A stretch of 64,000 nt of DNA, from assembly GCA_965279035.1 (NCBI GenBank), contig OZ257142.1:2048001-2112000 (forward strand), read 5' to 3'. Source of the DNA: Bacteroidia bacterium. Lineage in GTDB: Bacteria > Bacteroidota > Bacteroidia > M30B66. The position numbers were made by a program, and so were the translations under genes. The stretch's first letter is position 1, and each line of letters starts with the position of its first letter. Under the pieces are notes generated by a model, which was not told where the DNA came from, ran no database searches, and worked only from the letters and a program-made list of their open reading frames with translations. Below, in pieces: positions 37,201-37,667 of the stretch.

Positions 37201-37298
37201 ATCAAATAAAAAAAGACCAAAGAGTATGAGGCTTTTTTGGGGGGCTAAGTGTTCGAACCTTGACCCTCCCGACTATTTTCGGGATGCTCTGAATCAGC
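37201..37298 (-). repeat. degenerate direct repeat of tRNA-Val (D arm to acceptor) plus its terminator; anticodon arm replaced by the TCCCGA-AAATAG-TCGGGA hairpin
   Basis: GCTGATTCAGAGCATCCCGAAAATAGTCGGGAGGGTCAAGGTTCGAACACTTAGCCCCCCA vs tRNA GCTGGTTCAGAGCATCTGCCTTACAAGCAGAGGGTCACTGGTTCGAACCCAGTAGCTCCCA; both followed by AAAAAGCCTCAYACTC...CTTTTTTTATTTGAT. Confidence 0.85.
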
Positions 37299-37538
37299 AA
37301 TTAGCTTCTCAATTAATTTTCTACTCTTCCAACTTTTAATTTGTTTTTCTCTTTTTAAAGCTAGATCCTTTGTTTGATAGCATTCTTTATTTCGAATATT
37401 CCAATCAGCTAATTTTCCTGTAAATCCTTTGTGTTGCGAATTATGTTTTCTTAATCTTTCTTCAAGAAAATCCCCAGTATATCCAACATAGTATTAATCT
37501 AATGTTCTGGAATATAGTATATAGACATAAAATGGCAT
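37245..37538 (-). pseudogene. small GIY-YIG nuclease (UPF0213/YhbQ-like) with an in-frame TAA at codon 15
   Basis: Manual translation: [96 protein letters not shown]; not in the ORF track. Confidence 0.85.
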
Positions 37539-37560
37539 ATTGTATTTAAATATATCAAAT

Positions 37561-37590
37561 AAAAAAAGCCCCACGAGTGTGAGGCTTTTT
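37561..37590 (-). terminator. intrinsic terminator of tRNA-Val
   Basis: AAAAAGCCTCAC-ACTC-GTGGGGCTTTTTTT directly 3' of the tRNA. Confidence 0.8.
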
Positions 37591-37592
37591 AG

Positions 37593-37667
37593 TGGGAGCT
37601 ACTGGGTTCGAACCAGTGACCCTCTGCTTGTAAGGCAGATGCTCTGAACCAGCTGAGCTAAGCTCCC
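37593..37667 (-). tRNA. tRNA-Val (anticodon TAC), CCA not encoded
   Basis: GGGAGCTTAGCTCAGCTGGTTCAGAGCATCTGCCTTACAAGCAGAGGGTCACTGGTTCGAACCCAGTAGCTCCCA forms a full cloverleaf; promoter TATATTTG at 37700-37693. Confidence 0.97.

Follow-up and report, generated by a model that had tools for sequence, protein, structure and literature searches.

The window, i.e., the whole 64-kb stretch of the Bacteroidia bacterium contig OZ257142.1 analysed here, carries on its minus strand a small nuclease unit placed directly behind a tRNA gene. A functional tRNA-Val(TAC) gene (37592..37667; called by ARAGORN and by Rfam RF00005 at 71.8 bits), whose native anticodon arm is TCTGC-CTTACAA-GCAGA, is followed by an intrinsic terminator made of a GC-rich hairpin and a T run (~37561..37590), which was identified from the sequence, aligns to the terminator part of a leader model, and lies in the gap between the tRNA and an open reading frame (ORF). 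This ORF (37245..37538, with its ATG at 37538 and its TAG at 37245) is a 97-codon pseudogene of a GIY-YIG nuclease of the UPF0213/Slx1-like type, as indicated by its translation, by 1291 homologues, and by a match of residues 3-73 to Pfam PF01541 (50.7 bits against a cut-off of 22.6, E 2.3e-13), and it is inactivated at codon 15 by an in-frame TAA (37494..37496). Its 3' end enters a tRNA-like tail (37238..37298), so that its last ~55 nucleotides (nt) are a partial copy of the tRNA-Val gene in which the hairpin TCCCGA-AAATAG-TCGGGA (37267..37284), located by pattern search and family comparison, takes the place of the anticodon arm. The tail is followed by a second terminator and ATTTGAT (37201..37237), a duplicate of the first terminator and its first downstream bases. 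A preliminary description made from the letters of the window had reported this succession, its motifs, and the exchange of the anticodon arm, all of which were confirmed by ARAGORN, Rfam, translation, PF01541 and, for the arm, alignment to the tRNA.

The tail retains the D loop and the 3' strand of the D stem, the hairpin, the variable loop, and an eroded T arm and acceptor 3' strand. Compared with tRNA-Val, it is identical at 16/18 positions in the D region, 11/17 in the anticodon arm, and 24/31 in the variable loop, T arm, and acceptor 3' strand, and the 40 nt downstream of both agree at 33/40. The copy had been described as keeping the D arm, T loop, acceptor strand, and terminator; the D loop with the 3' strand of its stem and the terminator are indeed kept, whereas the D arm is not present as a whole and the T stem and acceptor are eroded. 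Moreover, the tail is called as a tRNA neither by ARAGORN nor by Rfam (E<=1), and its predicted fold is weak (z -1.3). A hairpin of the TCCCGA-N6-TCGGGA type occurs once in the 64 kb against 0.02 expected, and the window hairpin is an eroded form of a 7-8 bp palindrome typical of the family. No integrase, either tyrosine or serine recombinase, lies between the repeats, and the unit of ~350 nt contains the GIY-YIG ORF alone, in agreement with its initial classification as integrase-free.

Contigs from four DNA runs (two samples of one study, which may be where the window comes from) span 36571-37647 with zero differing letters and without any joint in the unit; thus, the TAA at codon 15 is really present in the DNA and the window copy of the cassette is a dead pseudogene, as had been suspected. 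Read depth over the tRNA-Val gene (37590-37670) is ~5x that of the flanks and several contigs exit into other flanks, so that the organism (or others in the sample) must have additional tRNA-Val copies at other places.

Linkage to tRNA genes and the tRNA-like tail

Sequence comparison places the window unit in a cassette family widespread in the tRNA arrays of Bacteroidota. The protein search yielded 1291 homologues, mostly of ~87 residues and from this phylum, 491 of which were confirmed in one-genome-per-species contigs; the locus counts use the best 80 of these 491, and 66 of the 80 are informative, having enough upstream DNA to be judged. A same-strand tRNA lies upstream within 400 nt in 59 of the 66 informative loci (56 within 150 nt and three at 151-400 nt), and the strand of the ORF is shared by 85/85 tRNAs in the related loci, with none opposite. 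These 59 tRNAs are Val-TAC (48), Arg-TCT (6), Lys-TTT (3), Met (1), and Val-GAC (1), while the other seven loci have no upstream tRNA, including one (L030, of a Pedobacter strain) with a truncated tRNA-Val missed by ARAGORN. The typical order is a functional tRNA, a terminator, the ~87-codon GIY-YIG ORF, a disabled tRNA copy, and a second terminator, all on the same strand. A tRNA context was also found for 23 of the 30 family matches in five whole genomes, among them remote paralogues located next to Asp, Ala, Pro, Asn, Met, and Gly/Leu genes, and for 11 of the 14 members of a separate, more distant sample from 14 other genomes (Asn, Pro, Ala, Asp, and Gly), the remaining three having only 121-272 nt of upstream DNA to inspect. 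The enrichment of homologues directly 3' of tRNA genes, anticipated in the preliminary description, is thus borne out.

In a mirror class, the GIY-YIG ORF is located upstream of an intact tRNA-Arg gene and is preceded by a 5' tRNA fragment with another hairpin. The mirror loci L106, L107 (about 1390-1830), and L101 involve tRNA-Arg (ACG, CCT), with a CCTGCCTGC..GCAGGCAGG hairpin in the D region of the fragment and the ORF stop inside the first bases of the intact tRNA-Arg.

The tail follows the resident tRNA closely outside the substituted segment. In 78 comparisons between a unit and its nearest upstream tRNA, identity reaches 956/1371 positions in the D region, 792/1309 in the anticodon arm, 2054/2413 in the variable loop, T arm, and acceptor strand (perfect in 40/78 by table count), and 2060/3080 in the next 40 nt. 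T arms vary among taxa and the tail tracks the local T arm. Native anticodon arms are of five types, whereas the arm of the tails is always of the TCCCG..CGGGA kind and the native arm appears in the tail in 0 of the 78 comparisons; three high arm scores come from rows whose reference tRNA was itself a hairpin-type copy. Downstream tRNA copies with a TCCCG..CGGGA arm that match the local tRNA, as supposed at the outset, are therefore a family-wide feature.

The pairing of the hairpin is conserved, with stem pairs 1-7 of the Watson-Crick type in 49-53 of 53 distinct versions and covariation at pairs 1, 2, 6, and 7. Most hairpins have a 7-8 bp stem and a 3-5 nt loop, unlike an anticodon arm, and the typical palindrome at tRNA-Val is TCCCGAYT-N3-ARTCGGGA, often containing a stop codon. 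A strict context pattern, which misses some real hairpins, detects it in 68 of 100 distinct tails. A single change separates the common loop TTTATAA from the anticodon loop that a genuine tRNA-Val (L058) carries on this stem, and it is this change that produces an in-frame TAA. At other tRNA types, a hairpin of the same kind replaces a type-specific segment, namely the one after CTGTTA for Asn, the 5' half of the T arm for Asp and Gly, and the anticodon arm for Ala, Lys, and Arg-TCT. The anticodon arm is also what is lost in Pro, where the GC-rich hairpin in its place has a different sequence. T-arm insertions occur in 10/63 tails (six loci). Insertions of 25-50 nt at one T-loop position (after TTCGAAC) were noticed in the tails of L003 (2840 unit), L032, L039, L065, and L202, several of them ending in ..AATAAT and sharing a CTCACGA-like core, and other tails have small hairpins there.

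The C-termini of the homologues read ..LIxGSEHPD before the stop and the longer ones continue into translated tRNA-like sequence; the conserved end of the protein (..GSEHPD) is itself translated tRNA-like DNA. The tails of intact units match no Rfam or tRNA model at E<=0.1, and only the ORF-less, full-length hairpin-type copies in L084 score as tRNA (40-42 bits). Tails can nevertheless be mistaken for odd tRNAs, which probably gives rise to spurious tRNA entries in annotations of Bacteroidota. ARAGORN calls on tails or hairpin-type copies include Ile-TAT, Val-AAC, and a tRNA with a four-base anticodon (L074 2716-2792, L078 2797-2874, L047 2380-2459).

The nuclease, its arrays, and associated repeats

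Y17, G19, R28, H32, N33, and E64 are invariant in alignments of 30 and 45 sequences, Y6 is invariant in the former and at least 90% conserved in the latter, and all seven are present in the window copy; the conserved Tyr, Arg, Glu, and Asn-type residues presumably have the catalytic roles associated with them in GIY-YIG enzymes. The family profile matches UPF0213 BH0048 at E 4e-8, and the predicted structure (pLDDT 79.7) adopts an alpha/beta GIY-YIG fold whose best structural matches are UPF0213 1ZG2 (TMq 0.64), Slx1 6SEH (TMq 0.63, rmsd 2.8, 71 columns), and EF2693, with I-TevI as a weaker match. The cassette protein thus resembles the stand-alone UPF0213 proteins (BH0048, EF2693; YhbQ-like) and the nuclease domain of Slx1, which was compared in its form bound to branched DNA, in length, fold, and conserved Tyr/Arg/His/Asn/Glu positions. 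Slx1 is a branched-DNA nuclease which, unlike the cassette protein, needs Slx4 and has a RING domain. No family of PHROGs or NCBIfam was matched, and a wider profile collects 9302 cluster representatives at E<=1e-3 and 1456 at E<=1e-10.

Units of ~350 nt are frequently repeated in tandem, in arrays of two to at least eight with a period of ~340-425 nt; one locus of a Mucilaginibacter strain (L059) has at least six identical copies, G307 and L150 have eight each, and there are many pairs and triplets. Three predicted proteins (P0122, of 204 residues, P0128, and P0130) have two GIY-YIG stretches and probably result from tandem units joined in a single reading frame. In many loci, the right edge of the last unit falls exactly at the tRNA 3' end, and elsewhere it takes in the terminator or even the ~17 first nt of the next ORF, a pattern that fits both tandem arrays and insertion into the tRNA gene. 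Moreover, hairpin-type pseudo-tRNAs without an ORF adjoin native tRNAs and are sometimes arrayed. Such arrays were observed in L124 (G001), L131 (G276), L084 (1030-1450), L126, and L135, with examples of five copies at a 101-nt period and four copies at ~96 nt.

The distribution of the family is patchy. With the profile, it is detected in 34 of the 301 genomes sampled from the phylum (E<=1e-20) and in nine of 35 genomes of one genus (E<=1e-25), with 1-8 copies each, while the strict tail motif occurs in 12 of the 301 (controls 0), half of which (6/12) are without the nuclease at E<=1e-20. Among metagenome relatives of the window's FolC-tRNA-Val locus, which are different species, at most 58-70% identical and with unalignable flanks, one of five informative loci is occupied, and in two of those counted as "empty" a lone remnant of the acceptor strand persists, together with a second terminator ~150 nt downstream. 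The corresponding comparison in the genus of G002, anchored on a neighbouring gene, yielded no usable empty site, as the closest ORF-free genome is without tRNA-Val at that place and the flanks do not align.

dN/dS is 0.045-0.17 in the four independent comparisons possible, which indicates purifying selection on the ORFs, and premature stops affect only 5 of 103 near-full units, the window's included; the second unit of L003 is stopped at the same codon. Tandem units within a locus are 88.9% identical in their ORFs, 79.8% at third positions, and 94.6% in their tails, and in L015 the ORFs are 68% identical while the tails agree at 53/54 positions. Thus, the protein is kept functional while the tails are homogenised with one another and with the resident tRNA. 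The ATG follows the T run of the terminator within 5 nt in 44/81 distinct contexts and within 15 nt in 64/81, which leaves no space for a promoter of its own, and expression of the ORF would have to come from the tRNA promoter by read-through.

The palindrome also occurs away from the cassette. TCCCGA-N2-9-TCGGGA is present in 34, 43, 5, 29, and 28 copies in five genomes against 0-4 for the control, and a stricter form in 0-57 copies in 35 congeners against 0-2. The palindrome is further embedded in other mosaics resembling repetitive extragenic palindromic (REP) sequences and in a repeat resembling miniature inverted-repeat transposable elements. The latter, of ~150 nt and with the TCCCGATTTATCGGGA hairpin at its centre, is found in at least 11 near-identical copies in one Echinicola genome (L111-L121, G004). 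REP-like palindromes flank the GIY-YIG paralogues that have no tRNA in 6/6 cases from four genomes, which also hints at an element-like life style, and 30 further loci of this kind have a flanking inverted-repeat score of at least 13 in 15 cases against 0/57 shifted controls, most of the repeats being short. The six bracketed paralogues (L090, L095, L100, L103, L105, and L108, around position 1500 of each) have a different REP-like repeat family in each genome, and the arms in L100 are 64 nt long, 92% complementary, and 356 nt apart. This tRNA-less subfamily is dispersed and multi-copy (51/121 genomes, up to eight copies). No paper naming both "GIY-YIG" and "repetitive extragenic palindromic" was found in the literature searched.

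Possible mode of life of the cassette

The reading favoured here, which is given about an even chance of being correct, is that of a selfish, Slx1-like nuclease cassette resident in tRNA arrays and gained, amplified, and lost through tRNA-derived repeats in the manner of SegB. The ORF is bracketed by direct repeats formed by the tRNA 3' part and terminator on each side, and owing to them homologous recombination could amplify the unit, delete it, and hold its tail identical by gene conversion. By analogy with SegB, the nuclease may act on the DNA of its own cassette as a structure-specific enzyme, making breaks that would drive recombination at its locus and favour retention, amplification, and spread of the cassette between homologous tRNA loci, as in the tRNA clusters of T-even phages. 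The palindrome would mark and disable the extra tRNA copy, and it could serve to confer immunity, to bind the nuclease, or to form a hairpin at the end of the mRNA; a homodimer prediction run for palindrome recognition gave a score of 0.00. A break at the hairpin itself was rejected as the main model, because gap repair from the native tRNA would give native arms, which appear in none of the 78 comparisons. A tmRNA-like or intron-like reading was also rejected, there being no 5' acceptor strand upstream of the ORF.

Several observations weigh against such a selfish, mobile cassette. Although propagation between tRNA genes had been proposed initially, each nuclease lineage keeps to its tRNA type, and the approximately unbiased (AU) test does not reject a single clade of the six tRNA-Arg-linked ORFs (p-AU 0.55). 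Host orders cluster on the nuclease tree (27 changes against a shuffled mean of 36), which was built from 88 columns and leaves 48 of its 76 branches unresolved, and a long vertical residence would explain much of the distribution. Moreover, two to three native tRNA-Val copies adjoin intact ORFs (L035/L081, L050/L084, L056, L062, L073, and L078), which argues against efficient cutting of native tRNA genes; an immunity to cutting conferred by the swapped arm, as first suggested, finds no support. The hairpin is also a dispersed REP-like module whose copy number in 35 congeners, all of them with other paralogues, is not clearly related to the Val-type nuclease. Any tandem repeat would be expected to evolve in concert and to form arrays, with or without a nuclease, and perfect palindromes can stay perfect via template switching instead of selection. 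In addition, PF01541 (residues 3-73 of 87-97) is the only domain found, without a DNA-binding module such as those of I-TevI and SegB, and no relative is present among 79 pattern matches in viral contigs.

The arrangement looks undescribed, although it belongs to a known kind, that of GIY-YIG nuclease genes tied to tRNA clusters. One report describes SegB as a GIY-YIG nuclease encoded in the tRNA clusters of T-even phages that recognises the conserved T-loop motif of tRNA genes (PMC2330249), and another indicates that SegB drives tandem amplification via homology between a tRNA gene and the segB 3' end (PMC13096335). The cassette shares with SegB the position of a GIY-YIG gene among tRNA genes and the frequent tRNA association (PMC2330249, PMC13096335), as well as, according to the second source, an ORF 3' end with tRNA-gene homology and, probably, a segmental tandem amplification driven by homologous recombination (PMC13096335). 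Unlike segB, the cassette ORF lies behind the tRNA and runs into a disabled, palindrome-bearing tRNA copy. SegB is also a far larger protein, encoded by phages and equipped for DNA binding, whereas the cassette protein, a predicted nuclease, is an 87-residue catalytic domain of the UPF0213/Slx1 branch encoded in the chromosomes of Bacteroidota. A search of the literature on UPF0213/Slx1-type proteins did not find tRNA-gene linkage, a pseudo-tRNA tail, or tandem arrays, and the available passages of a 2006 GIY-YIG survey mention tRNA only for a TrmH fusion (PMC1564403). Likewise, no published description of a nuclease combined with a disabled tRNA was found in the full-text literature, most subscription journals excepted.

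Islands and prophages brought to tRNA genes by integrases resemble the cassette in that a direct repeat of the tRNA 3' part flanks the insert and a functional tRNA is preserved upstream. However, the cassette has no integrase, its insert is only ~350 nt long, its units are found in tandem, and its repeat extends over the terminator and, on the 5' side, into D-region sequence, a palindrome standing in for one of the helices. REP/RAYT systems and the TnpB-omega-RNA pairs of IS200/IS605 offer another parallel, as they combine a small nuclease gene with hairpin repeats and ORF-less copies and place a structured element over the ORF 3' end beside a locus-specific flank. Unlike them (HUH and RuvC nucleases, respectively), the cassette encodes a GIY-YIG fold and the hairpin number shows no clear link to the nuclease.

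Alternatively, the ORF might be a host gene, a small Slx1-like nuclease for repair or for RNA or tRNA metabolism expressed from strong tRNA operons, an explanation regarded as rather unlikely. The tail would then be the relic of a neighbouring tandem tRNA copy, kept alike by ordinary concerted evolution, and the hairpin would stabilise the 3' end of the mRNA while also disabling the additional tRNA. This would agree with the purifying selection, which acts even between old tandem copies, with the start of the ORF directly after the tRNA terminator and without promoter space, with the stable ties of lineages to one tRNA type and their partial clustering by taxonomy, and with the frequency of tandem tRNA-Val genes in carrier genomes. 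A host gene would fit poorly, however, with presence in 34/301 genomes of the phylum sample and 9/35 of one genus, with copy numbers that range from one to at least eight among congeners and include identical tandem copies, or with the existence of pseudogenes and of decayed remnants at "empty" loci. Nor would it account for a hairpin-substituted dead tRNA that recurs at no fewer than 10 tRNA types, at type-specific positions, or for dispersed, multi-copy tRNA-less paralogues among REP-like repeats, and 3' stabilisation is not valid for every case, the hairpin of the mirror class being 5' of the ORF. Still further from the evidence, and very improbable, is ordinary decay, in which the arrangement would go back either to the att duplication left by an integrase-borne island in a tRNA gene or to a REP sequence inserted by chance, and the small ORF enclosed would be unrelated. 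Integrative elements do duplicate tRNA 3' ends, the hairpin type is that of a dispersed REP-like module, and an insertion sequence (IS) element lies 0.6 kb from the window unit. Against this, the 350-nt combination of ORF and tail recurs in 59/66 and 11/14 loci with the hairpin position fixed per tRNA type, no integrase is present between the repeats, and the IS element interrupts a different gene, that of a DUF5829 protein.

A partnership at the RNA level, considered improbable, would have the transcript tail, with its hairpin handle and stretches of the local tRNA, work with the nuclease, either as a pseudo-substrate that cannot be cleaved or an antitoxin, on the model of type III toxin-antitoxin systems, or as a guide to the matching tRNA or tRNA gene, like the omega-RNA over the tnpB 3' end. 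Such a partnership could explain why a structured element overlaps the ORF 3' end and is followed by sequence always equal to the local target, why the replaced segment is type-specific, as expected of a scissile or recognition site, and why hairpin pairing is conserved by covariation; ORF-less hairpin-type pseudo-tRNAs arrayed within tRNA operons and a patchy distribution reminiscent of defence or addiction genes would also be in line with it. Nevertheless, the tail is devoid of the tRNA 5' half, and hence cannot fold as a tRNA, and the models of Rfam do not recover it; PADLOC, run on three family proteins, returned nothing for two and one marginal match (E 0.0079) for the third; arrays of up to eight nuclease genes are unlike toxin-antitoxin pairs; and the duplicated terminators and spacers reveal a repeat process at the DNA level. 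No RNA-guided relative is known for a catalytic domain of 87 residues. A broader conjecture, bold and similarly improbable, is that stand-alone GIY-YIG proteins of Bacteroidota are the engines of an unnamed, hairpin-dependent class of mobile or self-amplifying DNA, in which the palindrome that closes the gene, as a cruciform or as an RNA handle beside sequence matching the locus, would direct the 87-residue nuclease to tRNA genes and, for the tRNA-less paralogues, to REP-like repeats. Were it true, no homing system directed by structure or RNA would be known that is smaller, and the class would generate REP-like repeats with a GIY-YIG protein in place of a RAYT.

If the selfish, SegB-like cassette is the correct reading, thousands of genes annotated as "GIY-YIG nuclease family protein" would find their context in tRNA operons, where they would influence the number of tRNA genes, give rise to pseudo-tRNAs, and cause assemblies to break at these loci. 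The principle of SegB, i.e., the remodelling of tRNA clusters by a GIY-YIG nuclease, would then extend from phages to bacterial chromosomes, and the cassette would offer a tractable system for site-finding by a bare catalytic domain.

Second unit and neighbouring genes

A second GIY-YIG unit is located 2.5 kb from the first one, also on the minus strand. The preliminary description had placed it at 34594-34870; GIY-YIG and tail remnants are present there, but the unit is far more decayed than the first and covers 34591-34776. Its nuclease part (34636..34776) was detected by a hidden Markov model scan over profile positions 36-80 only (14.6 bits), and sequence alignment identifies a tail remnant (~34591..34640) whose hairpin remnant has the same odd loop variant as that of the first unit.

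The neighbours of the unit in the window are FolC, DUF5829, and an IS element with a DDE transposase. The IS element (35217-36600) has its DDE_Tnp_1 transposase split from the DUF4372 N-terminal part (frames 35316-36140 and 36092-36511) and interrupts the DUF5829 gene (36575-37180, probably also 34927-35319). Its read depth is ~2x that of the flanks, and other copies of the IS have a 13-nt insertion variant.

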